Below, in pieces: positions 16,169 through 50,230 of a stretch of DNA of 64,000 nt. The DNA is from a virus. A program made the translations under genes and the position numbers. Where the stretch lies: positions 37,905 to 101,904 of IMG/VR virus record IMGVR_UViG_3300027852_000033, one strand, 5' to 3'. The notes below the pieces were generated by a model. It made no database searches, had not been told where the DNA came from, and was given only the letters and a program-made list of their open reading frames with translations. Every line of letters begins with the position of its first letter. The first letter of the stretch is position 1.

Positions 16169-16450
16169 TTACCCCTCCTTTTTTTGTCTTTTTACTTCCT
16201 TCTTTGCACTATGAATACGAACAGTTGCTCGTATCAATAATGTTAAAGGTAACAACGCAAGACATACTAAAATAGTGATGCCAACTCTCAAACTTGTGAC
16301 GAAATGACACATCACCTCATACAATGTTGCAAATAACTCTTTAACAAACTTACCAGTATCAAGCCGCAAAAACTCAATAATATTCATTTTGGCGACATTA
16401 GACTCGCAATTTCTAATTTTGCCATTATCTCTAATAAACTCTTTCTTCAT
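16169..16450 (-). CDS. Small membrane protein
   Basis: 93 aa; hydrophobic segment VGITILVCLALLPLTLLI; AAGGAG upstream; overlaps the end of the 1274-aa gene. Confidence 0.6.
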   Translation of the reverse strand: MKKEFIRDNGKIRNCESNVAKMNIIEFLRLDTGKFVKELFATLYEVMCHFVTSLRVGITILVCLALLPLTLLIRATVRIHSAKKEVKRQKKEG

Positions 16451-20255: not shown

Positions 20256-20467
20256 AATATTCTCCTTGATCTTTTAATTAGTTAAATATTATTATTATAT
20301 TTTAACTGTGTTTTCCAGATAATAAAAGAATAAGTTTTGAATATCAGCGGAAATAGTACAATAATGGTTAGATAGATCAAGTGGTAGGTAACAATAACTT
20401 GTTAACAATGTGAAAATAAATAATCCCACTCCGAACGCATAGCGTGAGGTTCTGGGTATATATTAAT

Positions 20468-21043
20468 TCCTAAGCAACTTAGGATTATTATCTTATTGTT
20501 AAGATGATAACTATCTACTAATCCCAGCTTACTTCATTTATCTGACAAGTATCTGACGAGCATAGCGAGTCGTGAGAAAATATAGCTTCCAAGTATCTTG
20601 GAAATATTATCTTATCATCTACTATCGGGAGGATATTGTAATTTTAGAATAGCGATAACTGTTTAGATTTGCTAAAACCGGCCCTCGGTTTTAATAAATA
20701 TATCTCAAGCAACTTGAGAATAATCTCTTATCGCTCATTTGTTTATTAATAAAATCTTCCAGTTCATTCCTAACACAAGCGCATGGAAATTTTTTAGCAA
20801 TTGAATATAACTATTTGGATAATTGTGTCACCTGGAGCATAGGAGCATCCCCGTTTACCTTTCCTGTATTAATCCAGGTTTTTCCATCCCCAGTCGTACT
20901 CCAACTATCACTACCCAATCCCATCCATCACTTCTCTCAAGCTGCGATCAGGTTAACAGCGATAGCGCTGCATCTGCTGGTTCTTTCATTTTCCATAGGA
21001 AAATAAATAATATCTTACAGGTATCCTGTAATTAATATCTTAT
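20468..21043. repeat. Four dispersed copies of a 29-nt hairpin-plus-box element
   Basis: TCCTAAG-CAA-CTTAGGA-TTATTATCTTAT (20468-20496); TTCCAAG-TAT-CTTGGAA-ATATTATCTTAT (20587-20615); TCTCAAG-CAA-CTTGAGA-ATAATCTCTTAT (20703-20731); TTACAGG-TAT-CCTGTAA-TTAATATCTTAT (21015-21043). Confidence 0.85.
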
Positions 21044-21052
21044 ATTCATGTA

Positions 21053-21712
21053 TTACTCAGTTAAGTATTCATTGTGTTTTTTTACAAGGCCGGTGCCCCT
21101 GCAAAGTTTACAAACAATCTGGGTATTTTCTTTTGTTAAAATATACCCAGTTCCTTTACATTTAGAGCATTCGGTCATAATATCATTATATCTTTCCACA
21201 ATTGTCCTCGCTTCCTTTAGTTTACTTATAGTTAAGAGAATAACCTTATCTACCGGCGATATAGGCAAACCTATTTGGGATAGTAAATAACGGCACTCTA
21301 ATCCTATGTATTGTATAATACTATTATTATATAGCTGATAGTAAATTTTGGCAATATCTATTACTGTTCTTTTAAGATCAATATTGTTGTCAATATCATC
21401 ATTCTCTAAAGTTGATATAATATCTAACATATCACTTTTTATTGTATTATTATACCCCATAATATCTTTAGACTCACACTCAGATAATACATGCACTGCA
21501 GCTTTGTGAATAATATTAGAACTTGGAGTATTTTCTTTATTCTTATTTTTTAGTTCCCATGCTGTAACGCACCATATTATATTTAAACTAAATACATTTT
21601 TCCATTTGATTGACAACTTATTTCTAATAATAGATACAATATATGTTATTAATATAATGCTCAAAATATAAAATACAAAGTTGAGTATTAACAAACTGTT
21701 AATGTATTGCAT
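21053..21712 (-). CDS. Membrane-anchored protein with a C-terminal DnaJ-type zinc finger
   Basis: N-terminal hydrophobic helix; C-terminal CSKCKGTG and CKLCRGTG (CxxCxGxG twice). Confidence 0.7.
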   Translation of the reverse strand: MQYINSLLILNFVFYILSIILITYIVSIIRNKLSIKWKNVFSLNIIWCVTAWELKNKNKENTPSSNIIHKAAVHVLSECESKDIMGYNNTIKSDMLDIISTLENDDIDNNIDLKRTVIDIAKIYYQLYNNSIIQYIGLECRYLLSQIGLPISPVDKVILLTISKLKEARTIVERYNDIMTECSKCKGTGYILTKENTQIVCKLCRGTGLVKKHNEYLTE

Positions 21713-21713
21713 A

Positions 21714-22034
21714 TTATTCTCCCTGTTTCTTAATATTTTGTCGCTCGTTGAGTGTTAATATTCTCCCATATTCTATAATTTCATCAACCATCCAATCATA
21801 TCCTGAAAACCCTGTGCTCTTCTTTCTTCTTTTGGCCGCTTCATTAGCATAAACACTTTCTACCTCTATATTAGCCCCCCATCCATCACCGAAATTGTAA
21901 TAGAAATTATGTCCTGATAATTGCTCTTCCTTTTCTTTAGATACTCTTCTGGTTATGTAATGTAAATCACTTTCTCCTGTCCATTTTCCATTCCAGCTTC
22001 CAATATTCGGCATAGTTAATCTAAAAGATAGCAT
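21714..22034 (-). CDS. Phage hypothetical protein
   Basis: 106 aa, GGAGGAG RBS; W/G/Y-rich (GSWNGKWTG, YNFGDGWGA, GFSGYDWMV). Confidence 0.75.
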   Translation of the reverse strand: MLSFRLTMPNIGSWNGKWTGESDLHYITRRVSKEKEEQLSGHNFYYNFGDGWGANIEVESVYANEAAKRRKKSTGFSGYDWMVDEIIEYGRILTLNERQNIKKQGE

Positions 22035-22207
22035 AGTTACTCCTCCGTATTGTTAATAAGTTTTATATAATATATACTACTTGTTTATTACCTTCATATC
22101 TCTTGCTTCTTCCACTCAAATGTATCTGATGTTCCAGATCTACTTTCAAAAAAACATAGGGTCTTATTAAAAGTTTCTGATAACTGTAGGATTTGTCCAT
22201 TGGTGAT

Positions 22208-22513
22208 TTATGGTAAGTCTGTATAATTTTTATTGATGATACTAGCTAAAACTGCCGAGATAGTAGAAACCACTATAGGTAACATAATTATATTTATAAT
22301 GCCGAAATTGGCAAAATATATTATAGAGAATATAAGACCTACCCAGAATCCTATACACTGAGAGCAAAATAGAAGGGTAGATATATTATGTTCAAGTGGT
22401 CCTCCAGTAGGTAATCTTTTCAATATTAACATTTTTGGAGTATCAAAAATAGTAGAGGTTGATAAAAATATAGTAATTGATACTGAATATAAAATAATTT
22501 CTATAAAGTCCAC
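22208..22513 (-). CDS. Small membrane protein, DUF1360-like
   Basis: GTG start; about three hydrophobic segments and LLFCSQCIGFWVG, matching the CxxCxxxW signature recalled for DUF1360. Confidence 0.6.
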   Translation of the reverse strand: MDFIEIILYSVSITIFLSTSTIFDTPKMLILKRLPTGGPLEHNISTLLFCSQCIGFWVGLIFSIIYFANFGIINIIMLPIVVSTISAVLASIINKNYTDLP

Positions 22514-35423: not shown

Positions 35424-38400
35424 ATGATAGGCGGCATTCTAGGCTTTGCTACTTCAATGGTAGCATGGCAAGCTACAGCTATGGCGGTTAAGGAAGGTGC
35501 AAAATGGGCAGCATCTACCGCCAGAAGATCTATTGTAAAATACGCCAGGTATGCAGAATCGGCTCGTAATACTAGAGGTACTAGAACTGCGAGGCATATT
35601 TTTGATAGAGTTAGTAAAGTTGAACCAAGACTAGGTTCAAGAAATTTAACTGAACAAACCATTCGTACCACAACTGCTGCATATAGAAACAGAATGAGTG
35701 CCGCAGTTCGTCGTAGAGTATTATCCAAACAAACTCCAAAAGTTAGAAAAGCACTTACTGTAACCGGAAAAGCAATAGGCGATGAAATATCGGTTCTTCC
35801 GGCTACTTATGTAATGTATAGATTAGAAAAACATACTGCAGTAAGTCCTGAAGAAAAAGAAACCACTGCATCATTTTCTAAGTGGTATCTTGGGGCACCG
35901 ATGGCTTTTTCTATAGGTATAAATGCTGCTTTAAGAGCAAAACAAAAAGGTACGGTGAAACGTACAACAATGAAAGTAGCTAAAAAATATAGTCGACAAA
36001 CCAGATCGGTGGTTAAGACAGGAATGCGTGGGTTAAAACATATTTCTTCCGAGCATAAATATAATATAGCTGATAAAGCAATTGCATTATCTAGAGCACG
36101 AAGAATGACTACTGAAAATAGAGGACTTTTATCATTGGTAGGTTCCCGTAGGCCCAGTGATATATATAAGCATATAAAGAATCATTACAAAGAAGAACTC
36201 CCAAGAGTAAAACACCTTAGAGAACACCGGCTTACAGCTATAGATAAACAAATGGATAAGTTACATGAAACAATAGTTGAGATGAGAGCTGGTAAAAAAT
36301 ACAGTACAATAGAACCTGCAGAGAAAAAACAATACTCTAGTGAGACTAGGGAAGTTATGCGACAGGTTAGATCTATAGGATATCAAAACTATGAAAAGGA
36401 GGTTAACAAACGAAGCAGGATTTTAAACTTTGTAAATGAAGTTCTTGAAAATGCAGGCAGTACTGATTTGCAGATACGTAGAAAAACAGCGCGTAGATCG
36501 ACACAGAGTGGAACTAAAGATATGCCATTAGATCCTAGTTTATATAGTTATAGAGGTGAAGATTTCGACATGGGGAATCTTAGTATGAGCAGTATAAAAG
36601 ATTCTTTGATAAAAAGAGCGGGAAAAGGCATTCCACAATTTGCATTATCATTATTTGGTCAGGGGGATATGATAAATTATCTTCATTCAGAACATGCCAT
36701 GGGTTCGGCATTTAGGATAGGTAGATCAGGAAGTCGAATATATTTTCCACATGCATTATCATCAGATCCTCTTCAAAGAGAGTCACCTTCCGATATAATT
36801 TTATCGATGATGGGTACAACTGCATCTACTGCTACTAGGGCGCAGAGAGATACCGCTAGTCAATTTCTTGATACCAGATATAAACTATATATGAAAGAAG
36901 GGATGTCAAGGGGCGCTGCATCTAATGCAATGAAAGTATCGGCTAATAGAGGAGAATTGTGGCTGGCTGCAGATGATATTTTATTACATAGCCCTGGTGG
37001 AAAAATGGGCATTATTAGTAAAAATAGCAAAGATAATAAACCTATGTTCATAAATATGGGAGGTGCACCAGGCGGTAAGATGTTAGATTACCTACAGTTT
37101 TCTAGTCAAACAAATAGTATTGGTTCAAAATTGTACAGAAATTGGCTTGGTTCGGAAAGATATGAATATTTTGACAAAATAGGTAAAGTAAATAGACATA
37201 TACAATTAGGCCCTACTCCTATAGAACGGATAAAAGACCAAGTAGAAGTATCAGGAACCATGGGTGGATTACGTAAAGTACTAAAGAAATTTGAGATTGG
37301 ATATTCCCAAGAGCAATCCATATTTTCAAAAGTGGCCGGGCTGATGAAAAAACATGGGGATCCCAGATATACTGGCACTTTATTTTCTAAAGACTATCTC
37401 CGAAGCGAGAGATGGATTGATGAAATGTTAAAGACTGATAGAAGCATAGAAGAATTTGGTAACATTATACGAGGGGAAGCCAAAGATGCTTCAGATTATT
37501 TTTGGCATAATATGATCAGGAAAGCAGGTGGGATGAAAAGAATGCGGCCAACTTTTAAGAAACATTCTGAAAATCTCCCGGTATCCATGAATGAATTTTT
37601 GATATATGATGATCAAACAGTTAGTCAAGCTAAAGCTAATATAGATTCACTACATGATTTTCTTATAGATATATCCACTGAGAAATCAGATAAACGTAGA
37701 TTATATAGCTGGTTAAGAGATGATATTAAAGAAGTAAAGATGATGCAGAGACGGTTTCATGATAATGACATACCAGACCAAAAATTATTTGACTTACTTG
37801 GAGATAAATTTGATACTAATTCTGTAACAATAGCGGGTAGAAATCGAAAACCTACAGCAATTGATAGTTATAACGCCACAGTATTTCGGATAACCACTGC
37901 AGTTATGCAATCTATTCCTGAAGAATTTGTAGCTCATAAATTTCCTAAACATATTTCAGGAGAAGGATATAGAGAACAGGTAACAAATGCTCTAGACCAA
38001 ATGTTTACTGATTCAGTATATAATGTTACAAAACAAAAGGAAAGGAGTGCATATGAAGTATCAAAAAGATTAGGTAAAGTTTATCAAGATATTAGTGGTA
38101 GCTTTTCAGAAATACATCCTGCAATTAGTGAAAATGATAGAGCAAAAATTGTAGGTAGTATAAAATCCTCCGTTCGTCATTTTATAGGCGATCATACTGA
38201 ACTTAAACCGGATATAGATTATGTGGTAGATTATCATAAAAGCAGGAAATTAAAATATTCTGCCGCGGCCCCTTGGAATTTTGATACTAGACCAAAAGTC
38301 GGCCAGCCTGATTACGATGAAATATTCCTGATGCCTAAAACTTGGAATACCGGCCCTATAAACAAAAGGCAAATAAAAGTCGGACCAGACCAGACTATAG

Positions 38401-41400
38401 ATATAGCCGAAGGTATAATGGATGCATCTAATGTAGGTATGATGTCAATGTTTCATGCCTTTAATAGAACCGCGTCTGAATTTCTCGGTATAGGCTTGGA
38501 TGAAACTCTTACTACTACCCCTAGAATGTATCTTAAAAAGATGTTCACAAAAAGAGTTGCACCAGTTATTGGAATATCTATGGCATACTCCGTAGTTAAC
38601 CGAATGGCAGATGAATATTTAGATGGCACAATATTTGGTGAGGGAATTGGGGTATTTGGAGCTAATATAATAGCAGGGGCTAGAGTAGCCGCTCAGGGTA
38701 TGTTAGATGTTACTGGTGGTACTGAAACTGCTGCTTATCTCGAAGATTTAATGCCTGGTTCTATAACTTCTCCATTATCTGGATTAGTGAGAGGAATAGG
38801 ACCTATGATAGGTGGGGTATTAGCAGGAGCTAGATTCGGTCCCAGGGCTGCAATTACTGGAGGAGGAATAGGTGGCGCAGTTGGTATGCTATTAGGCGGT
38901 GGTCCACTAGGGGTCTTTGGATTGCATGATATTTCTAAAAGCAGAAAACAGGTAGTAGAAGAACTTATAGGAGAAAGGGAAGTACCTATACGGAAAGCCA
39001 GATTTTGGGAGTTAGGTGCACAAGATTTTCATGGTGGGCGTGTCCAATATTTTCGGCCACATATGTATGCAATGTTAAGAAGTGACTATCAACATGCACC
39101 GGGCTATAAAGATTCTTTAATGACAGAAATGGTAGGAAGTGTAGCGCCTGACATTTATGCTATGAAAAATTACTATTCTCGGCCATACCCTGCTACCGCT
39201 GGTTTATTTTCAGATATTCCAGTATTTAGTAATATGATGCATATGATCCCTGGATCAGATATGGTTACTGGAACAGGAATATCAATGCACCAAGATGAAT
39301 TAGAAGTACCTATGGGGGCTGCATCAACCGGTTATTCTATGGGGCAGGCTGCACAAGCTGGGCTCGGAATAGACAGTATATCGGCCATGTATAAAGATAA
39401 ACAGGGATTATATGGTTTTGCAGAAGGAGGAGCAAATGCAGTTGGTGGAGGAGATATAAATACATTGTTAGCTCCTACCCCTATGGAAATGGGATCGGCA
39501 GAACATGCTATAGGAAATACTATAACTAATATGCAAGATATAGTAGGACTTCGTGGTTTTATAGGTAGTTCTATATTTGGTTCAATAACTGGCCGAAGTG
39601 AATTATTTGACTATGCTCCGGAACTTGCATCCCCTATAGACATAGCAGGTATAAGGCAATCCTACTGGGAGATGGAATTAGGGGGACTTGCGGGATTATG
39701 CCTAGCAGATAATACTCCTATAGAAACTCAAACCAAAGTAAAGAAAGCAGAGGATATTCTGGTAGGAGATAGTATATTATCAAAGGATGGGAAGTATAGA
39801 CCGGTAAAGCGTATATTCAAAAGAAAACTGGATGATAACAAACTTTATGATATCTCGTATAGTGGTATAAATCGTCCACTATCTATTAGCGGAAATCATA
39901 AATTACCCATATATAGAAATCAAAAATGTGTAAAAACAAATACCACATCATGTTGTAAATCTGATACTAAACATAAATGTATTGATTGTGCTTTCAATAT
40001 AAAAACAACTGATCCATTTACTAACTCAAAAATAATCGATATCCCGCCTCATACTGCCATAACCAATAACTATTATTACACTGCATGTAGACAAGAATTC
40101 GCAGAAGTATATGAATATATAGAAAACAATGGAACTGATGATATACCTTCAGATTACCCTAATCGGTTTTTCGGTTTCAAACCATATACTGATGTAGTGA
40201 GACATGTACTTGATCATATCAAAAGAGGCTGGGAAATTAAACGACATCCTTTAACCTGTAAACTATACGAGAAAAATACAGTTGATACCTTAAAAAAAGG
40301 AGATTATCTGCTGCGTGCTATCCCTGTAGTAAATAATTTTCCTAATATAGTAATAGATTTAGGAAAATATGTTCCAGATACTTATTGTATTACAGATAAC
40401 TATATATATAGAAAAGGACTAGATCCTAATTTTATAAAGGCCGTTGAATACTTTGAAAATAATCCGGATATGCTAAATAAATCAGTAAAAGAAATGTCTA
40501 TATTGTTAAATGTTAGTCCTATAAAGATTACGACTGCGCGTACTCATTTCATGTTAAAAAAGGAATCGAAAAGATGGAATAGATATCTTGAGATAAATGA
40601 GGATTTTGCATATTTTATAGGATGGTATCTTGCAGAAGGATATTCATCAGTTGGCAAGGAGATATGTCTTGCATTAAATAGTAATGAAATTGAATATGCT
40701 ACACATCTCAAGACTATCATAACTGGTATTCTAGGGGTTAATGTATATATAGACATAGATAATGAACACCATACCTTAGTACTTAGATTCAGCCATCCTC
40801 CCCTATCATATTTTCTTAAAGCTGAATTAGGTACATATTGTTATAATAAGCGTTTATCTTCTTATTTATGGACAAACAATAAAAGTACCATGCTCTCATA
40901 TATCAAGGGCTTATTCTTTGGCGATGGTACAATAACTAATACCAAGAATAATAAAGGTAATGGTTGTAGTCTCAAAACCACTTCAGAATCTCTTGCATTT
41001 TTATTTCATACTATATTATCAACATTTGGTATAGTAAGTACTATATTTATAGAATACCCTAAAGATCGTAGAGTTGTATATAAAATAGCAGTATATGGAT
41101 ATAACAATATTCTGTTTCGTAATCTATTTGGAATACCTATATCTACCCCTCCCAAAGATATTAGGCGATTAAAGAAGATAGGTAGTAAAGATGGCGTTTT
41201 TATTAAAGGTAATTACATACATTACCGTATATCGAATATAACAACAAAATATTATAATAGATGGGTATATGATTTTGAGGTAGAAAAAGTACACTATTAC
41301 CACTCTAATTTAATTTGTATATGCAATTCTGAAGTCATAAGGCGTTATGTGCCCCATTCTCGCAATCAAATCGATGTATTTAATCCACATGTTAATACCA

Positions 41401-43325
41401 TGCCTGATTGGTTATGTGGTTCAGAATATTATGTGGATTTTAGACACGGGGATCCTTTTGCCGCTGTCCCCATGGGAGAAGCTCGTTTGCCCGGGCCTAG
41501 TTACGAAAGTTTACATAATATAGATCTTTCCATGCCTTTAGAAGCTGATATATTAGGAGAAGAACTCGATTCTCAAATGGCATTTTATCTAGGATTACCA
41601 GAATATATGTCTCATAAAAATAGACTGATTGATATGGTAGAACCTGTTAAAAAAGATATAGAGTTGGCTGCCAGACGTTATGGGAGTATGGTAAAAGGCG
41701 AAACCCATTTGTATGAACCTTCTATAAATTTACATGCTCAAGCTGACGCTATAGTAAAAGATGCTAGTGGTGAGAAAGTTCCGATAAAAATTGTACCTAG
41801 AGGAATTGCAGGAGAAGCTTCCATAAATGCATTTATGGTATTAAGTGATGTAGAGAAGGGGCTACTTATAGAAGTAGATACTGAAACCGGCGATATAGCT
41901 CAACGAATAGTAAATAAAGATATTAGGCGGTTTCAAGCAGATATAGAACGAACAAAATCGGCAGCAGTAGCATCCTATGGTTCTATAAATCAGTTGGAAG
42001 AAGATGGCAAAGCTATGAATTTAGCTAATGCGTATTCATGGTTTGATCGTTTCAAAATCCTAGCAGATGTAGCCCAATATTCAGATAGTTATAAAGTAGC
42101 AGAAGCTATAGTAGACCAACAAATGGCTAGTGGTAGACTAAATGATAGGACGGCTGAATACCAGGTCATAAAGGACCAGATAAGAGAAAAGCAAAAGGCA
42201 CTTGATTTTGATGAATACAGATTTTCAAATATAGGAAAATCCATAACCGAATATGGAAAAGCAAAAGATGAATTTCATCAAGATAACTATAGTTATTTGG
42301 AGCAACAAATAGGTACGCTGTGGGAACGTGCATCGCATTTCAGATCGCCAGTTCATACAAAATTGCTTCATCAAAGTTCCGCCATGGAAGAATACGAAAG
42401 ATCAGTTATGTATGGAAAAGGTGTAAAACTTTGGGAGCAACCAGGTGAGGACTTTTTAGCTTCCTATTATCATCTCGCTAGAGGTGAAAAAGATCCACTA
42501 CAGGGATTTTCTTCATGGGGAGTAGGTGGATATTTATTAGGTGGCGGCCCGGTCGGTTTAGCTATGGGAGCAGCAGGGGCTGGGGTTTCAATGTGGAATC
42601 GCATGTCAGGTAGCACATATATACCTGACAGGGTAGCTCAGCGTCGAGATGTGATGGAACAAATGGATGCGGTAAAATATGCTAAATTCAAAAACCTATT
42701 TCAACAAACAGGGGATAGTGAATATCTTGATAAAGCTAATAGGACTATGACTAGCACTTCAATGCAAAATCAAATATTAAGCCCAATTTCTACTGCGTGG
42801 AATATAGGAGGACCGGATAAGTATTATATAGAGGATATAATAAATAATGTTACTACAGAGAATATAGATAGGGTACGAGACATGTTACCTGAAACTGCAG
42901 TGGCCTCATTGTATCAAGCTATGGGTGATGAAAAACTGGCTACTTTCACCATGGGAAAATTTGCAGAGCGCCAAATGGAAAGAGAGTTACCTGACATTAC
43001 ATCTACTGTATATTCTCCGGATGTCCCAATTGAGAGCCCACTTATTGAAACTTTGGAACAAAGAGGAGTAACCGCTCATGATGCAGGGGTAGGATGGTAT
43101 AGACAAATGGCTACTCTCCAAAGATCAAAACAATTAGGGATATATAAAGACCAAGACCTTTTATATCCGGATGCTTTTCAAGGTAGAGTAACAGTCAAAG
43201 ATTTTGATAATTCATTAACTGATACTGGCCAGTTGCGCAATTTATTATTACAATTTTCAACTAATGTTAGTATTATAGAAGATGGGCAAAGTAGAATAGA
43301 ACTTGAGATAGTAGGTAGGAGTTAA
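35424..43325 (+). CDS. Tape-measure-like / ejected protein precursor containing an intein (2090 aa after splicing)
   Basis: 2633 aa after the chaperone pair; basic helical N-terminus; Gly/Ala-rich hydrophobic segments (GGVLAGARFG...GGAVGMLLGGG; GGYLLGGGPVGLAMGAAGAG); intein; degenerate nuclease-like domain. Confidence 0.7.
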   Translation: MIGGILGFATSMVAWQATAMAVKEGAKWAASTARRSIVKYARYAESARNTRGTRTARHIFDRVSKVEPRLGSRNLTEQTIRTTTAAYRNRMSAAVRRRVLSKQTPKVRKALTVTGKAIGDEISVLPATYVMYRLEKHTAVSPEEKETTASFSKWYLGAPMAFSIGINAALRAKQKGTVKRTTMKVAKKYSRQTRSVVKTGMRGLKHISSEHKYNIADKAIALSRARRMTTENRGLLSLVGSRRPSDIYKHIKNHYKEELPRVKHLREHRLTAIDKQMDKLHETIVEMRAGKKYSTIEPAEKKQYSSETREVMRQVRSIGYQNYEKEVNKRSRILNFVNEVLENAGSTDLQIRRKTARRSTQSGTKDMPLDPSLYSYRGEDFDMGNLSMSSIKDSLIKRAGKGIPQFALSLFGQGDMINYLHSEHAMGSAFRIGRSGSRIYFPHALSSDPLQRESPSDIILSMMGTTASTATRAQRDTASQFLDTRYKLYMKEGMSRGAASNAMKVSANRGELWLAADDILLHSPGGKMGIISKNSKDNKPMFINMGGAPGGKMLDYLQFSSQTNSIGSKLYRNWLGSERYEYFDKIGKVNRHIQLGPTPIERIKDQVEVSGTMGGLRKVLKKFEIGYSQEQSIFSKVAGLMKKHGDPRYTGTLFSKDYLRSERWIDEMLKTDRSIEEFGNIIRGEAKDASDYFWHNMIRKAGGMKRMRPTFKKHSENLPVSMNEFLIYDDQTVSQAKANIDSLHDFLIDISTEKSDKRRLYSWLRDDIKEVKMMQRRFHDNDIPDQKLFDLLGDKFDTNSVTIAGRNRKPTAIDSYNATVFRITTAVMQSIPEEFVAHKFPKHISGEGYREQVTNALDQMFTDSVYNVTKQKERSAYEVSKRLGKVYQDISGSFSEIHPAISENDRAKIVGSIKSSVRHFIGDHTELKPDIDYVVDYHKSRKLKYSAAAPWNFDTRPKVGQPDYDEIFLMPKTWNTGPINKRQIKVGPDQTIDIAEGIMDASNVGMMSMFHAFNRTASEFLGIGLDETLTTTPRMYLKKMFTKRVAPVIGISMAYSVVNRMADEYLDGTIFGEGIGVFGANIIAGARVAAQGMLDVTGGTETAAYLEDLMPGSITSPLSGLVRGIGPMIGGVLAGARFGPRAAITGGGIGGAVGMLLGGGPLGVFGLHDISKSRKQVVEELIGEREVPIRKARFWELGAQDFHGGRVQYFRPHMYAMLRSDYQHAPGYKDSLMTEMVGSVAPDIYAMKNYYSRPYPATAGLFSDIPVFSNMMHMIPGSDMVTGTGISMHQDELEVPMGAASTGYSMGQAAQAGLGIDSISAMYKDKQGLYGFAEGGANAVGGGDINTLLAPTPMEMGSAEHAIGNTITNMQDIVGLRGFIGSSIFGSITGRSELFDYAPELASPIDIAGIRQSYWEMELGGLAGLCLADNTPIETQTKVKKAEDILVGDSILSKDGKYRPVKRIFKRKLDDNKLYDISYSGINRPLSISGNHKLPIYRNQKCVKTNTTSCCKSDTKHKCIDCAFNIKTTDPFTNSKIIDIPPHTAITNNYYYTACRQEFAEVYEYIENNGTDDIPSDYPNRFFGFKPYTDVVRHVLDHIKRGWEIKRHPLTCKLYEKNTVDTLKKGDYLLRAIPVVNNFPNIVIDLGKYVPDTYCITDNYIYRKGLDPNFIKAVEYFENNPDMLNKSVKEMSILLNVSPIKITTARTHFMLKKESKRWNRYLEINEDFAYFIGWYLAEGYSSVGKEICLALNSNEIEYATHLKTIITGILGVNVYIDIDNEHHTLVLRFSHPPLSYFLKAELGTYCYNKRLSSYLWTNNKSTMLSYIKGLFFGDGTITNTKNNKGNGCSLKTTSESLAFLFHTILSTFGIVSTIFIEYPKDRRVVYKIAVYGYNNILFRNLFGIPISTPPKDIRRLKKIGSKDGVFIKGNYIHYRISNITTKYYNRWVYDFEVEKVHYYHSNLICICNSEVIRRYVPHSRNQIDVFNPHVNTMPDWLCGSEYYVDFRHGDPFAAVPMGEARLPGPSYESLHNIDLSMPLEADILGEELDSQMAFYLGLPEYMSHKNRLIDMVEPVKKDIELAARRYGSMVKGETHLYEPSINLHAQADAIVKDASGEKVPIKIVPRGIAGEASINAFMVLSDVEKGLLIEVDTETGDIAQRIVNKDIRRFQADIERTKSAAVASYGSINQLEEDGKAMNLANAYSWFDRFKILADVAQYSDSYKVAEAIVDQQMASGRLNDRTAEYQVIKDQIREKQKALDFDEYRFSNIGKSITEYGKAKDEFHQDNYSYLEQQIGTLWERASHFRSPVHTKLLHQSSAMEEYERSVMYGKGVKLWEQPGEDFLASYYHLARGEKDPLQGFSSWGVGGYLLGGGPVGLAMGAAGAGVSMWNRMSGSTYIPDRVAQRRDVMEQMDAVKYAKFKNLFQQTGDSEYLDKANRTMTSTSMQNQILSPISTAWNIGGPDKYYIEDIINNVTTENIDRVRDMLPETAVASLYQAMGDEKLATFTMGKFAERQMERELPDITSTVYSPDVPIESPLIETLEQRGVTAHDAGVGWYRQMATLQRSKQLGIYKDQDLLYPDAFQGRVTVKDFDNSLTDTGQLRNLLLQFSTNVSIIEDGQSRIELEIVGRS
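39699..41327 (+). mobile_element. Intein (543 aa) with a LAGLIDADG homing endonuclease
   Basis: Block A CLADNTPI, block B ISGNHKLPI, LAGLIDADG motifs FIGWYLAEGY and YIKGLFFGDGT, block F VYDFEV, terminal ICN followed by Ser+1. Spliced junction GGLAGL/SEVIRRY. Confidence 0.92.
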
Positions 43326-43327
43326 AA

Positions 43328-46300
43328 TTGATATTTCGTGATCCGAGAAGAGACACAGTAGATACTTCAGTATCATATCTAAAAACTATGGGGGTACTTT
43401 CCGCTATAGCTTATGGTGGAGTTCGGCTTTCTACCTCATTCACATCTAGTTATAGAGATGCAAAAAGATTAGTGGCCTCCGCTAAATCTATACGTGAGGA
43501 CTGGGCGCAAGCTGCCAGATTATTCCCAGAAATTGAACCTGAAGAAATCAAGAAATTATTACCTAATCAAAGAATAGATCCTATAGTCCCAGCAGGTGTG
43601 CCTGATATTGATAGGATAATAGATACTGATGAATATAAAAGGTTATCACAAGATAACTTAATGTATAGTACTGATCAGGTAATAGAAGAAGAACAATGGG
43701 AGAAAAAAGCAGCAAAGCTACTTACAGATGATGATTTAATAAGAGATTATTCACTATATGAACCCCATGTACGCCAAGAACTGATAGACAAAGTGGATAC
43801 ACTAAATCAAAAAATGAGTCTAACCGGTTCGGAAACCCCATGGGAATTGTCAAAAAAGATGACAGAGGTAACTTCCGCGAAGAATACATTCCTAAAAGAA
43901 TATAGTACTTTACCTAGTATATTAACTGATAATGGAGTAAATATCGAAAAGATATCATCAGATGGTTCGGGATATACTATAAAAATAAAACATGCGGAAT
44001 CAGGTAAATTTGCTACCGTAAATTTACCATCTTATAAAGGAGGTATGATACAAAAAGGAGTAACCGATTGGTTGCCTACCCTAAGTGCCGAGATTGTTAC
44101 TGCGAAAGAACCAGGAGCATATTGGGATGTAGGACAAAAAATATTGGTACACCGGTCTTTCGGCAGTGAGTTACTAGAAGAGGCCCAAAAAATAATTGGC
44201 GCGCGATTTCACATGATAGAACCGGGGATGAATCCGGCACAAGTAGTTGCAAATTCCTTATCTAATGCAGTCGATTCTTTGTTATCAAGAGCAGAAGAAG
44301 CAGGGAGAGTATCTAAACTAGGAGGCATAACCTCTGATAGATTTATACTAAAAGAAGTACTTGAAGCAAAACAAAAACCAGGAACTAAATCAGCCAGAGC
44401 AATAAAATCAACATATGCACAGTTAGTAGAAGGTATCCCGGTAGTTACTCTATCTGTAGAGGGAGAATTAAAAGCAACTGGTAGAGAGATATCAATGGCT
44501 GGTATATCCGAAGCCGCATATGTAAAATCTGGCAAAATAGCTACTGCGCCGGTTATAGGTGCTTTTCCTTATACTCCATTAAATGCCCAATCCCATCTAA
44601 GACCAACTTATGCAAAGAAATTAGTGTCAGGAGAACAACTATCCGTTAATATGTTATCCAGAATATTAGGTCCTACCTCGACTGAAGTACTTGAAAAAAT
44701 ATCAAAAGAGATAGGGAGAGAAGCCATCCCGGGTAAGATGGTTAATATAGGATTCTGGCTTGATGAATTGTACGGGGTAGGAGAAGGTAGCGTAGCCATG
44801 GTAGTAGATACCAGAATAAAATTAGGCGAGAATATTGATCCCACTGCTAAATTTTCAACAAAACAAATAGAAAATATATTATCTGAACATGGGTTAAACC
44901 AAAGTCAGATAGATCAAGTATTTGATTCTACTACCTTAAAAACTAATAATGTATATAAAGGAGGAATAACTATAAATGATATTAAGGACAAAGTAAAGGA
45001 CAACAAATCCATAAAAAAAGAGATAAGGGATATGATAACTCTAGGCAGAAAAAGAGGGTCTACCATTTTAGATACTTTTTCAAGTGTTAACATGTCTATA
45101 ATAGATGTTAAAGAATTTACAAAAGATGAAGCGGGTAAAGCATTTATTCATCCTATTACTAAAGATCTTATACTTAATAAACTTGGCGGCGAGTTTGGCA
45201 AAGAAGGAGCAATAAGTAAGAGCTTACTAAAAGGAAACGAAGCTCCGGTTGTTATAAAAAAAGGACAACCCCTTGGTATAGACCCTGTAAGTAATGAAAT
45301 GAAATTTGCGGATAAGAATCTTAAATTAATACGGATGGAAGTAGATAACGGGCTTATTAGATTTATAGGAGCAGAAGATATACCTCTGGCCCCAGGTCGT
45401 ACTAAACTTAGCACTACAAAGGCCATAGTTAATAAAATAACAACAAGGGAAGAATTAGGCCAACTTATGTTATCCGAGGGGGTATTTGACAAAGAGGCAG
45501 CAAAGTTATATGCCAAGGGGCAAATACCTGGTGCCGCTAATATTATAATGTCCGCAAACCAAATGAAAAAATTACATGGTGGCGGTATAGACCTAGGAAT
45601 AATGAACAAGATGCTTGGGGATATTGCCAAGATGAAATCTATAGAAATAGAAACATGGATAAAACAGGGCAGGATATCTGAATCAGTGAGAGGGGCACAT
45701 ATTGATACACTCAAGAAGGGGCTTCGTGAGGTAATGGTATATATGATGGATAGAGACGGGGTTGATACCGTGCTCGATAAACTCGAAATAGACGCAGGTG
45801 GAGAATTATCTATTAAATTAAAAAATGGGATATCTACGGCACATGATAAGTTTAAAAAACTATCGATTATGGAGAGTCTTATTCTGAAATCACAAACTGG
45901 TAATCAAGCCGCTATTCAAGAATTACATAGAGTATCAGAGAATTTACAAAAGATGGTTAAATCTACTACTGGTGTTGATTATACAATGTCGGTTGGATTA
46001 AAGCAATATAATAAATTATTACAAAGCCCAGGCGATACAATAAAAAATATGCCAGTACTTGTATTTGGTGATAATGGAACCAACCTTAAGGGTGTATTTA
46101 CAAGGACTTTTGAAGCAACTCACCTTGTAAGTATAGATAATTTCACTAAATTTTCAGGAGAGGATAGAGGATTAAACGGTTTTAGTAGAGGACGAAGACA
46201 AGGTATGGATGACATGATAAATGCTCATGCATCCGGATTAAAACATCTTGAACATTATTATAGTGCCCAACTAGACTATAAGTTTCCATATATTTTAGAT

Positions 46301-49300
46301 AAATACGAGGCTGCTTCCGATTGGCTAAGTGATAAACAATTTTCTACAGGGAAAGGAGCGGATACTTATAAGTATAACAATGGACAATGGGTTAGTATAA
46401 CAACAGGCAGGGAAGCAATAGGAGTAGGAGCAACTGGTAAAAAGAAGATGGCAGTGCTTTCACTAAACGATATAAGAGGTATAAAAAACTTCGGTAACGA
46501 AGACTTTGTGACAAGGTTAGTAACTGAATATGAAAATACAAGTAATATATCGGCGGCTAGTAGATTTCGGATAGTAATGGATAATATGAAAGATATGGCA
46601 ATGTTTACAGATGATGCAGATATAGCCGATTTGATAAAAAACAATAACCTGAGTATAGAACAATTAACAAGTCATGGTATGCTAGGTGGTAGAGGAAATA
46701 GTGCCCTTATAGAATCTGAAGTTATGGAAGAGTTAATGAAAGTATTTAACTCTGTCCCGGATGATGCTGTATTGTATATGAAACTTCCCATGGAAGTAGA
46801 TATAAATGGTAAAAAAACAAGATATGTTCCAATGCATAAATTTGACAAATCTGATATTTTTGAATTAGCGGAACACCGTACAGGACCTGATCTTGCTACT
46901 ATAGACAGAGAAGTGATAGGATCATTTTTTACTGGATCTGATTTTGTAACTAACCAAGTAAATTATGTAAGACAGATAGCAAAGATTGAAGAAGAACTCA
47001 GATTACATGCTGGAAATGATACTGTTAAAAAAGAAGCTATGGCACAGCTTAGGGTAGCCACTGCCGATAAAAGTGCAGCCATTCGAGCATCATTTACTGG
47101 TAAACATTCTGCAGCAAATCGTAGATTAATAGAAAATTCTATACCTTTTACTATGCAAGGGAAAGTAATAAGCGCTGAAGGTATACCTTTTGGAGTCAGC
47201 GCTGTATCTGCAGATGATGCAGTGAAGTTTTTTACTGGTGGCGTTGTAGATTCTATGGATATGGCTACTAAATTGACTAATGAAATAGACACTGTAAATA
47301 TTTTGCAAGATAGTTTAAAAAAGGTAGCCAATGTTTTTGACCATGCAACTTCAGGTGAAGCTCTTGATAACTCATTAACTGAATTACTAGAAGGGCTTGC
47401 CGGTATAAAAAGCAAGGTATATACAAAAGATATAGGGAATTTAACCGATACTATTGTTCAATATTGGAATGCCTCCAGACAACAATCTATATTATCAAAA
47501 GAAAAAGTATTAACTATCCCTGGCTCAATTGTAAAAAGATTCCCTACCATATCAGATAGTGCAGGTAGTAAAACTACAAAAATTACACCCAATATATTAA
47601 CTAATATAAAAGATAAGTTAGGTACATATGTAACAAAACATACAACCAATATACAGGAAAGAATTGATGAACGAGCCAAAGTAATGGCCACTGGAAAAAT
47701 GGCTACTGATGTTTTAAAAGATCTCGGCATGGAGTGGTCTGAAGACAATATGTATATGAAATATCCTGGATTAAATTCTACAAAGTATTTTCCAGGTTCG
47801 AGAGTTGTTAGACCGAATCAATTTGTATCTACTAATATATTAGGATATCCCTTGTTATCCAGTGCAGCTACAAAAGATTTACAGTTATCAGTTATAAACG
47901 AGAAAGGAGTATCCCAAAAGCTTATGGAGGAACTCCCTGCTACTGCAGTAAAAGATATACATAAAATGCATAATGCTCCAATATATATTAATAGCATAAC
48001 TGCAGATTCTATGGCAAGAGACTTTGATGGCGATTTAGTATTTATGGAAAATAGAGCTCTTGATTACCTAGAAGATAAACGGTCTCAAATTGATAATACA
48101 ATATCGTTATCTAAATCATTAAATATGACCAGTGAAGATTTCAAAAACTTAAGTCATGAAAGTATGATAAATGGTATACAGGAGCGATTAGCTATAGTCG
48201 GACCAGATAACGAACTTCTTCCAGCTAATAGGCAGTCTATAAAAATGATGTATAGTATATCCGAGGGAGGATATCAAAATCGGATTGTAACGCGTAGTGT
48301 AACAGATGAAATAGATAGAATACTACAGGAATATAATATAAGTGGGACAGAAGCCACTCAAGTTAGGAAAAAAATATATAACAATATAAGAACGAGTACT
48401 ACAGGATTTCTTAATGTTGATCATGCCAACATACAAGATCTAATAAATATAGATATGGCAGTTGTATCTAGAATAAGTACACCTGATGAAACCGAAAGGG
48501 CAAGAGAAATAGCCAAAGAAAAACACAAAGCTAAGTCACTTTTAACAGAAGCGGGATCTGAACAGGAAATGCTCAAGCTTTATCCGGATACTGAATATAA
48601 CATATTAGTAGATAAACTTACTCCAGAAAAACGGATTATACATCAAGCAATGATAGATGATCTGAAATCTCAGTTACCGCAGTTAAGAAAAGAGATGCAA
48701 CTTACCCAGGTATCAAGTTTTATAAATATAAAGGAAGGTACTCCGCCATCTTATAAATTGAGAGCGGCAATAAGACATATATCTGCCAATTTTACAAATA
48801 ATGAAAGAGAGAAAGCATTTTTGGACCTTCTAGCTAGTGAAACAATAGCCCAAAAAACTATATCGTCAAAGCATGGTACCCCTGATGTATTAGATGATCT
48901 TCTTGATACATTTAGAAAACTATCAAATAAAAACATATCATTGGATGATAATATATTTGAAAAAGTGTCAAGATATAATTTTTCAGTAAACTTGGCCCCG
49001 GAAATATCAGAAGAGATGGAAGAATGGGGCATGAAACAACCTGGGGTTAAGGTAGATTATGATACATATGAAGATTATTTATCTAAGAAAAAAGAATATT
49101 TAACAAAGCTTACAGATGTTAATCATAATGCCGACCTTGAGATGGTAGCCGCCATAACCGAAGGTAAAAGTGATATAAGAACCCTTAAAAATACTAGAGT
49201 AAAACATATAGATGGCAAGATGCAAAACTATAAAATGGTAAATCGCGGGGGAGAAAGTAAAAAAATAGCTCTGAAATATTGGGGATATGGATCCGCATTA

Positions 49301-50230
49301 GCAGAGGAAAAGCTTACTGAAGTAGATACATGGATACAAAATGCAAAAAAACATAGAAGGAGTTCGATATTATATAAAACATTTTCTCGTGGTATGCCTG
49401 GTGCAGATCCGAATACTGTATGGGAAAATACTACCAGGGAAATAAAACCATACGTAAAGAAAATGACAAAATCATTTCGTGAATTTCATGAATTACATGG
49501 AACGACTATAATGGAAGATAGAGGATATGCGGCTATTACTAAGTTTAGCAACGATGGGGTTAGTACCCTTGATGTAATAAAAGATTTAGAGGAAAAATTA
49601 TCCAAGGGTGAATCTATCCAAACATCTAGTATGGGGGAAAAAAGAATAGCCGAATTTAGTGCATGGGTCAGAGGTGAACAAGATATACGAACTACTAATG
49701 TAGATTATACTGATCGAATGAATAATCTTGTAAATTTGCATAATCGGGAGAAAAAAGATCTTATAAAATTAAGAGCAGAAAGGATAGCTCAGGAATCAAC
49801 AGTATTTAGGGCCGGATCAGTATTCGATGCAATAACCGAAGGAACCATAAAGCATACTGCATCTGCTGCAGATGACCAATTAATAAGATCAGCAGGGAAG
49901 TTACGAATTGGTACTATTCTTGCAGGGCTATTGACAGGAGTAATTGCTGGACAAACGGTGAATCAGATTACAAAAGGTTATGCAGTTCCTGATTTAGAAA
50001 AAACTGCGGGACTTGGAGGGGAGTATTATGAAGATAGTAGTGGTATAATGGGTAGAGAAATGGAAATTATGCTTAAACCAAGGCCTGCTAAAATAGTGTC
50101 ACAATATCAAGATGGCATGGGGGTATCAGGTGCAGCAAGGCATATCCATGATATGTTTACGGTATTATCCCCTAAACCGCAGGGCCAGGGGGAATATCGT
50201 TCTAAATATAGAGGCGTGGTAGTCGGATGA
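43328..50230 (+). CDS. Putative single-chain two-barrel (beta plus beta'-like) RNA polymerase, probably virion-associated
   Basis: TTG start with AGGAG RBS. Collinear motifs: PLAPGRTKLSTTKAIVNKI (aa ~686-704), GRRQGMDDMINAHASG (~955), TGKHSAANRRL (~1257), IYINSITADSMARDFDGD (DFDGD aa 1565-1569, nt 48020-48034), ETIAQKTISSKH (1838-1849). Confidence 0.8.
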   Translation: MIFRDPRRDTVDTSVSYLKTMGVLSAIAYGGVRLSTSFTSSYRDAKRLVASAKSIREDWAQAARLFPEIEPEEIKKLLPNQRIDPIVPAGVPDIDRIIDTDEYKRLSQDNLMYSTDQVIEEEQWEKKAAKLLTDDDLIRDYSLYEPHVRQELIDKVDTLNQKMSLTGSETPWELSKKMTEVTSAKNTFLKEYSTLPSILTDNGVNIEKISSDGSGYTIKIKHAESGKFATVNLPSYKGGMIQKGVTDWLPTLSAEIVTAKEPGAYWDVGQKILVHRSFGSELLEEAQKIIGARFHMIEPGMNPAQVVANSLSNAVDSLLSRAEEAGRVSKLGGITSDRFILKEVLEAKQKPGTKSARAIKSTYAQLVEGIPVVTLSVEGELKATGREISMAGISEAAYVKSGKIATAPVIGAFPYTPLNAQSHLRPTYAKKLVSGEQLSVNMLSRILGPTSTEVLEKISKEIGREAIPGKMVNIGFWLDELYGVGEGSVAMVVDTRIKLGENIDPTAKFSTKQIENILSEHGLNQSQIDQVFDSTTLKTNNVYKGGITINDIKDKVKDNKSIKKEIRDMITLGRKRGSTILDTFSSVNMSIIDVKEFTKDEAGKAFIHPITKDLILNKLGGEFGKEGAISKSLLKGNEAPVVIKKGQPLGIDPVSNEMKFADKNLKLIRMEVDNGLIRFIGAEDIPLAPGRTKLSTTKAIVNKITTREELGQLMLSEGVFDKEAAKLYAKGQIPGAANIIMSANQMKKLHGGGIDLGIMNKMLGDIAKMKSIEIETWIKQGRISESVRGAHIDTLKKGLREVMVYMMDRDGVDTVLDKLEIDAGGELSIKLKNGISTAHDKFKKLSIMESLILKSQTGNQAAIQELHRVSENLQKMVKSTTGVDYTMSVGLKQYNKLLQSPGDTIKNMPVLVFGDNGTNLKGVFTRTFEATHLVSIDNFTKFSGEDRGLNGFSRGRRQGMDDMINAHASGLKHLEHYYSAQLDYKFPYILDKYEAASDWLSDKQFSTGKGADTYKYNNGQWVSITTGREAIGVGATGKKKMAVLSLNDIRGIKNFGNEDFVTRLVTEYENTSNISAASRFRIVMDNMKDMAMFTDDADIADLIKNNNLSIEQLTSHGMLGGRGNSALIESEVMEELMKVFNSVPDDAVLYMKLPMEVDINGKKTRYVPMHKFDKSDIFELAEHRTGPDLATIDREVIGSFFTGSDFVTNQVNYVRQIAKIEEELRLHAGNDTVKKEAMAQLRVATADKSAAIRASFTGKHSAANRRLIENSIPFTMQGKVISAEGIPFGVSAVSADDAVKFFTGGVVDSMDMATKLTNEIDTVNILQDSLKKVANVFDHATSGEALDNSLTELLEGLAGIKSKVYTKDIGNLTDTIVQYWNASRQQSILSKEKVLTIPGSIVKRFPTISDSAGSKTTKITPNILTNIKDKLGTYVTKHTTNIQERIDERAKVMATGKMATDVLKDLGMEWSEDNMYMKYPGLNSTKYFPGSRVVRPNQFVSTNILGYPLLSSAATKDLQLSVINEKGVSQKLMEELPATAVKDIHKMHNAPIYINSITADSMARDFDGDLVFMENRALDYLEDKRSQIDNTISLSKSLNMTSEDFKNLSHESMINGIQERLAIVGPDNELLPANRQSIKMMYSISEGGYQNRIVTRSVTDEIDRILQEYNISGTEATQVRKKIYNNIRTSTTGFLNVDHANIQDLINIDMAVVSRISTPDETERAREIAKEKHKAKSLLTEAGSEQEMLKLYPDTEYNILVDKLTPEKRIIHQAMIDDLKSQLPQLRKEMQLTQVSSFINIKEGTPPSYKLRAAIRHISANFTNNEREKAFLDLLASETIAQKTISSKHGTPDVLDDLLDTFRKLSNKNISLDDNIFEKVSRYNFSVNLAPEISEEMEEWGMKQPGVKVDYDTYEDYLSKKKEYLTKLTDVNHNADLEMVAAITEGKSDIRTLKNTRVKHIDGKMQNYKMVNRGGESKKIALKYWGYGSALAEEKLTEVDTWIQNAKKHRRSSILYKTFSRGMPGADPNTVWENTTREIKPYVKKMTKSFREFHELHGTTIMEDRGYAAITKFSNDGVSTLDVIKDLEEKLSKGESIQTSSMGEKRIAEFSAWVRGEQDIRTTNVDYTDRMNNLVNLHNREKKDLIKLRAERIAQESTVFRAGSVFDAITEGTIKHTASAADDQLIRSAGKLRIGTILAGLLTGVIAGQTVNQITKGYAVPDLEKTAGLGGEYYEDSSGIMGREMEIMLKPRPAKIVSQYQDGMGVSGAARHIHDMFTVLSPKPQGQGEYRSKYRGVVVG

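Follow-up and report, generated by a model that had tools for sequence, protein, structure and literature searches.

A predicted fused β-β′-type RNA polymerase and a separate array of covarying hairpin elements in a rare contractile-tailed phage

The window analysed here is a stretch of 64,000 nucleotides from a 102-kb phage genome that belongs to a rare, contractile-tailed lineage; the genome encodes a tail sheath, and the phage is therefore not a podovirus. Two parts of the window concern us, a block of very large genes that surrounds a 2300-aa RNA polymerase gene, and a non-coding gap about 22 kb away from that gene which holds an array of small hairpins (Table 1). The polymerase gene lies in a translationally coupled, conserved operon of giant tail/ejection-type proteins, including a partner of 2100–2600 aa, with gaps of 2–15 nt between genes on the gene map. 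The gene order is common to the relatives L004, L005 and G001, and runs from proteins of ∼175, ∼265 and ∼2100 aa through the polymerase to a ∼470–650-aa staphylococcal-nuclease protein and a ∼2700–2900-aa NlpC/P60 protein. The NlpC/P60 and minor-tail matches found in the 2888-aa giant near the polymerase gene mark the operon as virion- or ejection-related.

Table 1. Features discussed in the text, numbered from the first nucleotide of the window.
Feature	Position	Strand	Remark
1274-aa basic protein with N-terminal hydrophobic (signal or anchor) segment	16431..20255	-	variable accessory slot
797-bp non-coding gap	20256..21052		genome's largest, houses the hairpin array; gene map
Four ATAGCG motifs	20439, 20562, 20649, 20962 (20439..20967)	+	one per hairpin
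Element c1	20452..20500		minus-strand reading: box ATAAGATAATAA, stem TCCTAAG/CTTAGGA, loop TTG
Element c2	20571..20619		minus-strand reading: box ATAAGATAATAT, stem TTCCAAG/CTTGGAA, loop ATA
Element c3	20687..20735		minus-strand reading: box ATAAGAGATTAT, stem TCTCAAG/CTTGAGA, loop TTG
Element c4	20999..21047		minus-strand reading: box ATAAGATATTAA, stem TTACAGG/CCTGTAA, loop ATA
219-aa protein with C-terminal CxxCxGxG zinc-finger-like motif	21053..21712	-	nearest gene upstream of the array
2633-aa giant protein with intein	35424..43325	+	directly 5′ of the polymerase gene, conserved operon
2300-aa single-chain β-β′-like (two-barrel) RNA polymerase, predicted	43328..50230	+	fold matches, invariant DxDxD
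DFDGD metal-binding motif, aa 1565–1569	48020..48034	+	inside the 2300-aa polymerase gene
650-aa protein with C-terminal staphylococcal-nuclease domain	50330..52282	+	directly 3′ of the polymerase gene
2888-aa protein with N-terminal NlpC/P60 peptidase domain (minor-tail type)	52298..60964	+	
Left-arm modules	left arm		T-run/CTATAGGAAT

The 2300-aa protein is, as judged from its modelled fold, a fused β-β′-type RNA polymerase. Residues 351–1180 resemble the β subunit of RNA polymerase (82 Foldseek matches at E ≤ 1e-3, best 9.2e-6), and residues 351–940 align with residues 536–1243 of E. coli β over 356 residues (VIA Z 12.5, rmsd 5.2), the β-like half matching 401 chains at Z ≥ 8 (VIA). Residues 1150–2300 resemble β′/Rpb1, with VIA Z of 10.0–10.7 over ∼350 aligned residues. 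The aspartates of the metal-binding motif, D1565, D1567 and D1569, are invariant in 21 members of the family, with variable residues between them. Sequence searches of Pfam, PHROGs and the PDB, by single sequence and by profile, gave no match, nor did tblastn against 50,697 phage records, and the family numbers 23 representatives among 1.8 billion proteins. This phage family is rare and had not been filed before.

Precedents for two-barrel RNA polymerases carried in the virion are phi14:2 gp66 and the enzyme of P23-45. The first of these (PDB 6VR4) is delivered with the DNA and transcribes the early genes; its transcripts share no common upstream motif, single-stranded templates are preferred, and the phi14:2 transcripts of long intergenic regions rank with the first to appear and the most plentiful. 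Like gp66 (∼2200 aa), the protein described here is one giant chain that contains both barrels and an Asp-x-Asp-x-Asp motif, encoded among genes for structural and giant proteins. Unlike gp66, to which it has no sequence similarity even by profile, its fold is nearer to full-length cellular β and β′ than to a QDE-1-like core. In BFVD it matches giant proteins of the crAss-like group weakly (E 1.3e-3, prob 0.92), and 6VR4 is absent among the structural matches listed. The phage also differs from a crAss-like podovirus in having a tail sheath and a host that uses Shine-Dalgarno sites. In P23-45, the virion polymerase gp96 is fused to the tape measure and transcribes the pre-early genes, including the gene of a second, non-virion polymerase (gp64), from AT-rich promoters. 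The present genome is similar in that it encodes two putative two-barrel polymerases, the first within the tail/structural block and the second heading a predicted early operon, together with AT-rich promoter-like modules in the left arm; here, however, the 2300-aa polymerase is separate from the tape measure. With the phiKZ and AR9 polymerases it shares a β/β′-like make-up that lacks α and ω, and their β-like chains, at Z 12.3 and 11.7, rank with its best structural matches, whereas those enzymes consist of 4–5 polypeptides and the β- and β′-like parts are here fused in one chain encoded by a ∼100-kb genome. Its place within the conserved operon of giant tail/ejection-type genes makes delivery of the polymerase in the virion plausible. 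Most probably it is synthesized late and then, by inference, enters the virion and leaves it along with the DNA, as in crAss-like phages.

The hairpin array (20452–21047) consists of four copies in a single orientation, each composed of a 12-nt box, a 7-bp stem and a 3-nt loop. All 28 of the 28 stem cells are paired; three pairs are invariant and four of the seven change on both sides, giving a covariation score that 0 of 500 shuffles reached. Of 25 perfect hairpins genome-wide (stem ≥7 bp, loop 3 nt), five fall within the 797-bp gap, where ∼0.09 would be expected from shuffles. On the + strand, each hairpin has an ATAGCG motif 25–54 nt ahead of it, so that the array holds 4 of the 16 copies in the genome, versus 0.16 expected. 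The gap has no credible open reading frame (those of 70 aa on the + strand and 37 aa on the - strand look non-coding), gave no blastn match in the phage collection, and contains, like the window as a whole, no tRNA or Rfam match in either gathering or E-value mode. A covariance model of the array, R1, found no further copy in the 102-kb genome and none in L003–L008, L039 or G001. An IUPAC pattern of hairpin and box gave 30 single matches and no arrays in IMG/VR; the one distinct perfectly paired sequence among them is about the level of chance, and the covariance-model E-values were 0.18–0.59. CRISPR-like repeats, type III toxin-antitoxin repeats, integron attC sites and IS200/IS605 ends were considered and rejected, owing to misfits in spacing, sequence variability or missing partner genes. 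A preliminary description of this DNA had recognized an RNA polymerase among structural genes and, in the hairpins, non-random structured elements with N4-like geometry; the invariant aspartates and matching β and β′ folds bear out the first, and the complete pairing and the shuffles the second.

The gene downstream of the array on the minus strand encodes the 1274-aa protein (pI 9.8), with its one hydrophobic segment at residues ∼5–24. It had been described as an exported protein directly downstream of the hairpins; the hydrophobic segment and the downstream position stand, but the gene begins 212 nt past the last element and is thus not directly adjacent. The closest relatives are P0002 (65%), P0026 (51%) and P0027. 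The hydrophobic segment is also found in P0026, which is 51% identical, whereas two distant homologues, P0027 and the one encoded by L039, lack it; the L039 genome has no such hairpins. Searches of Pfam, PHROGs, PDB profiles and the ESM Atlas gave no lead to the function of the 1274-aa protein.

An IMG/VR search anchored on a 992-aa neighbour returned only G001, the one syntenic relative examined. At the equivalent place, this genome has two perfect hairpins with 7–8-bp stems and 3-nt loops, with TATCT(Y) behind each of them on the same strand, and genome-wide it has four hairpin-TATCT combinations versus 0.5 expected. Since the covariance model gave the G001 hairpins no score, their homology to the array rests on the short motif and the position. 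The G001 slot gene encodes a Kelch lipoprotein unrelated to the 1274-aa protein (hhalign negative), so that the genes downstream of the hairpins in the two phages are both predicted to be signal-bearing and are non-homologous; the 219-aa protein has no homologue in G001. The array is a lineage-conserved cluster of cis-elements placed where the recA module gives way to a variable accessory gene, whose product would be secreted or anchored.

The mixture of invariant bases with covarying pairs in the stems, next to a 12-nt box that does not vary, points to recognition of shape as well as sequence by some factor. Our best guess, offered with limited conviction, is that the array is a structured transcription signal; the elements would be structure-dependent signals in tandem that serve the accessory cassette as promoters or as promoter/terminator punctuation. 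For the window as a whole, we tentatively favour, at clearly less than even confidence, two separate things: a fused polymerase that is probably delivered in the virion, and an array of cis-acting, structure-dependent transcription signals.

The elements could also act as RNA, as weak tandem terminators or attenuators or as nut-like protein-binding sites in a long leader between cistrons, and so tune the read-through from the recA operon into the accessory gene, which we regard as unlikely. On the minus strand a T-rich stretch lies behind each hairpin, a terminator scan flags three of the four elements on that strand (c2–c4, and c1–c2 on the + strand), and c4 begins 9 nt past the stop codon of the 219-aa gene; together, the T-rich stretches and the position of c4 keep a terminator or attenuator in consideration. 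The first G001 hairpin similarly lies 14 nt past the upstream stop codon. The order of box and stem-loop resembles that of boxA and boxB, in which a linear box directly precedes a stem-loop. However, the stems are AT-rich with three G-C pairs and weak as DNA (-4.5 to -5.0 kcal/mol), the T-runs are broken, and the first G001 hairpin has no T-run at all, whereas the evident terminators of this genome are GC-rich with T7 runs. Nor does termination need four spaced copies with a fixed 12-nt box and an ATAGCG partner.

The layout and folding of the gap suggest a further interpretation, in which it encodes several small non-coding RNAs, perhaps early transcripts, in units ∼117 and ∼312 nt long with the box and hairpin as a common 3′ or 5′ module. 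Unit spacing is regular at 119 and 116 nt (full range 116–312 nt), the units contain a repeated internal ATAGCG/GC-rich stem, and on either strand the gap has a more stable fold than its shuffles (z of -3.1 and -3.8). The highly transcribed intergenic regions of phi14:2 offer a precedent. We nevertheless give small RNAs little credence, since Rfam gave no match, the unit bodies align neither with each other nor with G001, and the individual units have no evident promoters. The skew in composition along the gap gave no clear indication of the transcribed strand.

It is also conceivable, and in our estimation very doubtful, that the array works at the level of DNA, as a replication origin or a packaging or recombination site with repeated protein-binding elements. 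A single locus that holds several copies, all oriented alike, within the genome's largest non-coding gap and adjoining a stretch of 27% GC, would suit such a site, as would the position next to the recA/recombination module and bordering a variable gene slot. Iterons bound by sequence-specific dimers should, however, keep their sequence, and the array stems covary; the terminase gene is 28 kb away, and no initiator gene was identified nearby.

The elements resemble neither the canonical terminators of the genome nor its σA-like promoters. The array has no common -35 and only a weak -10-like GATAAT. Ordinary σ70 promoters had been noted elsewhere in the preliminary description, and single good matches do occur, with TTGACA before recA and TGTGATATAAT before a 456-aa gene, but a scan with the consensus finds 60, no enrichment over the 53.1 ± 7.3 of shuffles. 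The left arm carries at least nine conserved AT-rich promoter-like modules before small genes, and a similar AT-rich motif is present in the early region of a relative. The genome encodes a second RNA polymerase, which is YonO/PF05183-like by language-model neighbours only. The left-arm modules, in a region of the kind that the P23-45 virion polymerase transcribes, are better candidates for early promoters than the hairpins, and the early programme would more probably start in the left arm, with the YonO-like polymerase gene and then the AT-rich promoter-like modules.

The closest parallel in geometry is with the early promoters of N4, which are used by a T7-like virion polymerase and have a 5–7-bp stem, a 3-nt purine-centred loop and a GC-rich heptamer with the loop at its centre (PMC4496689); gyrase and SSB are involved in their use. 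The array resembles them in the size of stem and loop, in its combination of invariant and covarying stem positions, in the adjacent conserved sequence and in the small number of copies. Unlike the N4 promoters, its stems are AT-rich and its hairpins weak as DNA, its loops are TTG or ATA (CAA or TAT on the other strand), and its four copies sit within 600 bp. The candidate enzyme is β/β′-like, of a different superfamily from the T7-like polymerases.

The preliminary description had joined these parts into one system, in which the injected 2300-aa polymerase reads extruded or single-stranded hairpins as promoters for a rifampicin-resistant, pre-early 1274-aa cassette while host RNA polymerase transcribes the rest. 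The polymerase appears real and lies in a structural gene context, the hairpins have a geometry close to that of N4 promoters, and phi14:2 offers both a preference of gp66 for single-stranded templates and early, abundant transcripts of long intergenic regions. Co-occurrence of polymerase and hairpins, proposed at the outset as a check, was found in the one syntenic relative examined, where similar elements accompany the polymerase. The link itself found no support. The array elements are confined to one locus, so that the injected enzyme would have a single transcription unit; the gene downstream is exchanged for an unrelated one in G001, the L039 homologue of the 1274-aa gene does without such hairpins, and distant homologues of the protein have no signal segment. 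On the + strand the box follows the hairpin on its 3′ side; with N4 geometry, transcription would then lead away from the 1274-aa gene. The lack of a common motif among gp66 early transcripts and the polymerase of this phage not being T7-like also count against the link, and the second phage polymerase with the left-arm modules makes a better early programme. An injected polymerase that fires from the hairpins to express the 1274-aa protein first is thus a possible, minority reading, and we judge it improbable. Quite unlikely too, in our view, is the wider proposal that a fused β-β′ polymerase ejected by a contractile-tailed phage would read covarying DNA hairpins with a TATCT-type box as promoters for the first transcripts, whether these are non-coding RNAs or an accessory secreted-protein cassette.

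To our knowledge, two-barrel RNA polymerases that travel in the virion have been described for crAss-like podoviruses and P23-45, and few rules are known for their promoters. The predicted complete β-β′ fusion described here comes from a sheath-bearing phage lineage of ∼100–150 kb with almost no database presence, and its family widens the set of phages that come with a cellular-type polymerase of their own. With the YonO-like polymerase, the AT-rich modules and the hairpin array, one genome offers three candidate classes of signal for three polymerases, two from the phage and one from the host. If the hairpins are not promoters, they are still an unexplained conserved element that marks a variable accessory-gene slot. 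If they are structured promoters for the 2300-aa polymerase, they would be a striking convergence with N4, an independent reinvention by an unrelated superfamily.

The window covers positions 37905–101904 of one virus contig of 101,904 bp. The genome is that of a very divergent tailed phage: it encodes a large terminase, a portal and a major capsid protein, and one product of 806 aa matches tail sheaths. A reading frame still open at the right end reaches its stop, a TAG, 11–13 nt into the contig's left end, so the assembly is probably circular. The left end itself is non-coding and filled with repeats (CCTATATATATAGA spaced 27 bp and copies of CCCATATAGACATAT), and could serve as a terminus, an origin or a site for packaging. 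Gene blocks switch direction in turn along the contig, and strong Shine-Dalgarno sites precede genes, for example AAGGAG ahead of the 1274-aa gene. A solo TnpB (OrfB_IS605 and Cas12f1-like TNB) lies between the genes for 992-aa and 1672-aa proteins, whose homologues abut without this insert in G001, a syntenic 150-kb IMG/VR contig.

Features of the phage genome and of related contigs (L001, full-contig numbering; L044, piece of G001; L039, Leptospirales MAG contig)
Feature	Coordinates	Strand
Left arm, small genes		minus
Structural block		plus
Block from recA to 1274-aa gene		minus
Giant-protein operon: 992 aa, TnpB, 1672, 170, 275, 2633, 2300, 650, 2888 aa, onward		plus
Repeat-filled left end	L001:1-375	
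Small genes with repeated module	L001:7400-12100	minus
852-aa protein	L001:12187-14745	minus
tRNA-like elements	L001:14780-15660	minus
1274-aa gene	window 16431-20255	minus
Hairpin within 1274-aa gene	window 17576-17612	
Gap with hairpin elements	window 20256-21052	
TnpB	window 27764-28999	plus
2633-aa protein	window 35424-43325	plus
RNAP C-terminal tail	window 49750-50227	plus
650-aa SNase protein	window 50330-52282	plus
664-aa Kelch-repeat lipoprotein	L044:7968-9962 (G001 87968-89962)	minus
1274-aa homologue	L039:9725-12784	

Sequence searches of Pfam, PHROG and PDB gave no match to the 2300-aa protein, nor did tblastn among 50,697 phage records, and HMMER, run exhaustively over 1.8 billion representatives, returned only 23 relatives, nearly all of 2000–2300 aa. 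D1565, D1567 and D1569 stay the same throughout 21 aligned sequences, whereas the intervening residues differ (DFDGD, DMDGD, DVDKD, DQDMD and others). An AlphaFold model of aa 1150–2300 (pLDDT 70.5) matches almost exclusively RNAP β′/Rpb1 chains in Foldseek (probabilities near 1, E about 4e-3), and VIA-align superposes ∼350 residues with Z 10.0–10.7 (model 1–961, β′ 100–1355). The model of aa 351–1180 (pLDDT 71) matches RNAP β, Rpb2 and vaccinia Rpo132, with 82 Foldseek matches at E ≤ 1e-3 (best 9.2e-6); it aligns with E. coli β 536–1243 at VIA Z 12.5 (rmsd 5.2 Å, 356 aligned) and with the β-like chains of phages phiKZ and AR9 at Z 12.3 and 11.7. From these fold matches of a β half and a β′ half, the protein is predicted with high confidence to be a fused β-β′-type RNA polymerase, and it represents a family that is new but of a known kind. 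The preliminary description had called it a probable virion RNA polymerase, and both folds and the invariant aspartate triad confirm the polymerase call. The C-terminal tail (aa ∼2140–2296) is strongly conserved in the family, reading GQxxNQ...GYxVPDL...GLGGEYYE...GRExE; its model has pLDDT <50, so that no fold was obtained, and the tail may act as a module for packaging or ejection.

The polymerase gene starts 2 nt past the 2633-aa gene. Next come the genes for two further proteins, one of 650 aa with a staphylococcal-nuclease domain and one of 2888 aa that has an NlpC/P60 peptidase at its N terminus and matches minor-tail PHROGs. The order [∼175][∼265][∼2100][RNAP][∼470–650][∼2700–2900] is kept in two metagenome contigs and G001. 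In crAss-like phages the virion RNAP gene has the same arrangement, and the enzyme, once ejected, transcribes early genes (phi14:2 gp66 study); BFVD listed giant proteins from such phages as weak matches. By this analogy of gene context, the 2300-aa polymerase is somewhat more probably carried in the virion than otherwise. The SNase protein (domain C-terminal), conserved directly after the polymerase gene in relatives, may be an ejected nuclease. The 2633-aa giant carries an intein with Hint and LAGLIDADG domains at aa ∼1425–1965; its relatives have 2094–2105 aa, and it is precisely the intein stretch that blastp leaves unaligned against G001.

The 797-bp gap ahead of the 1274-aa gene is the genome's largest non-coding stretch and holds four elements (c1–c4) in a single orientation. 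On the minus strand each reads ATAAGAkAwTAw, then T-NNNANG, a 3-nt loop (TTG or ATA), CNTNNN-A and an A/T-rich stretch. All 28 stem cells across the four copies are paired; three pairs are invariant, and in four both partners vary. The observed covariation score is reached in 0 of 500 column shuffles, and shifting the partner columns abolishes the pairing. Five of the genome's 25 perfect hairpins (stem ≥7, loop 3) sit in this gap; shuffled whole genomes contain 11.5 of them in total, or about 0.09 per 797 bp. The repeat unit is composite, because ATAGCG accompanies each hairpin, 25–54 nt ahead on the plus strand (4 of 16 genome copies; 0.16 expected). The array described earlier is real and more structured than first reported. 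A covariance model from the four copies found no additional copy in the genome. Inside the 1274-aa gene, a perfect hairpin (7-bp stem, 3-nt loop) preceded by ATAAGAAAC on the minus strand (covariance-model E 5.7) could be a fifth, degenerate element or have arisen by chance.

Since invariant and covarying stem positions adjoin a fixed box, some factor would read both the shape and the sequence of these elements. The preliminary description proposed that the injected 2300-aa polymerase uses the hairpins as promoters for the exported 1274-aa protein, an attractive analogy that now meets several counter-indications and that we consider improbable. N4 promoters have the hairpin upstream of +1 on the RNA-like strand and conserved bases between hairpin and start (PMC4496689), whereas here, on the plus strand, the strictly conserved box follows the hairpin on its 3′ side; read as in N4, the elements would therefore point transcription away from the 1274-aa gene, in antisense to the recA block. 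The regions upstream of phi14:2 gp66 transcripts, moreover, share no common motif.

An early programme would be better suited by the left arm. Its 852-aa protein contains GGDFDGD, and PF05183 (RdRP/QDE-1/YonO family) is found in 25 of the 30 ESM-Atlas clusters closest to it (top score 0.96). It is likely a second phage RNA polymerase, of the non-virion kind; G001 (79% complete) showed no homologue. Downstream, at least nine small genes each have a repeated module ahead: a GC-rich terminator with a T-run, CTGGATAAT or CTATAGGAAT, an imperfect palindrome TGGAATAG-N5-CTATTCCA, and an RBS. Five copies of a similar AT-rich motif, TTTC(C/T)ATATATATGA, lie on the gene-sense strand in the early region of G001, one of them ahead of the homologue of a left-arm gene. 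The virion RNAP of P23-45 uses AT-rich promoters at the entering end and transcribes the second RNAP gene; the left arm would fit this scheme better than one locus at a distance of 40 kb. The stop codons of consecutive genes upstream of the 852-aa gene are followed by tRNA-like elements (an acceptor-like stem and GGTTCGATTCC T-arm); the ARAGORN search covered the window, and these elements lie outside it.

The 1274-aa protein (pI 9.8, 11.7% Lys) has a single hydrophobic segment at aa ∼5–24, and searches gave no family, structure or atlas lead. Three relatives were found: one, 51% identical, likewise has an N-terminal hydrophobic segment, and two, 32% identical, are without it, one of these on a Leptospirales MAG contig with no hairpin array upstream. 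Acidic and aromatic residues in strictly conserved blocks of the family (MIDDD, YVYDF, HDRLLYG, DMDYFY) suggest an enzyme.

G001 has the replication, structural, recA and giant-protein modules in shared order (identities: TerL 51%, capsid 67%, sheath 58%, recA 48%, RNAP 23%). In the slot of the 1274-aa gene it has an unrelated 664-aa Kelch-repeat protein with a lipoprotein signal (LLSGC) and a weak CBM5/12 match, and so the slot has different secreted proteins in different phages. The 271-bp gap ahead of it holds two perfect 3-nt-loop hairpins (8-bp stem, loop ATG; 7-bp stem, loop ATA), each followed by TATCT(Y) on the plus strand (GATAGG ahead on the gene-sense strand) and oriented to the flanking genes as in this phage. 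Four such combinations occur in G001 (0.5 in shuffles), two of them inside this gap. They are likely homologous to c1–c4, although the covariance model gave them no score. The co-occurrence of polymerase and elements proposed as a check thus holds in both genomes, but these share everything else too, and it does not discriminate.

A further point against the preliminary proposal is that element c4 starts 9 nt past a stop codon, as does the first G001 hairpin at 14 nt; such a placement would also suit a terminator, an attenuator or an RNA-binding site. The elements are unlike the genome's evident terminators (GC-rich stems, T7 runs), as they are unlike its sigma-A-like promoters, and the hairpins are modest as DNA (−4.5 to −5.0 kcal/mol). 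Attenuators or binding sites acting at the RNA level are rather unlikely; small RNA genes are a doubtful reading, an origin, packaging or recombination site still more so, and other readings take up the remainder. The element cluster and its position are conserved, and the gene behind them is a replaceable accessory gene. Tandem copies heading a replaceable cassette would most simply be transcription signals, and the elements may, tentatively, be structured promoter-type signals read by some polymerase, the 2300-aa enzyme included.
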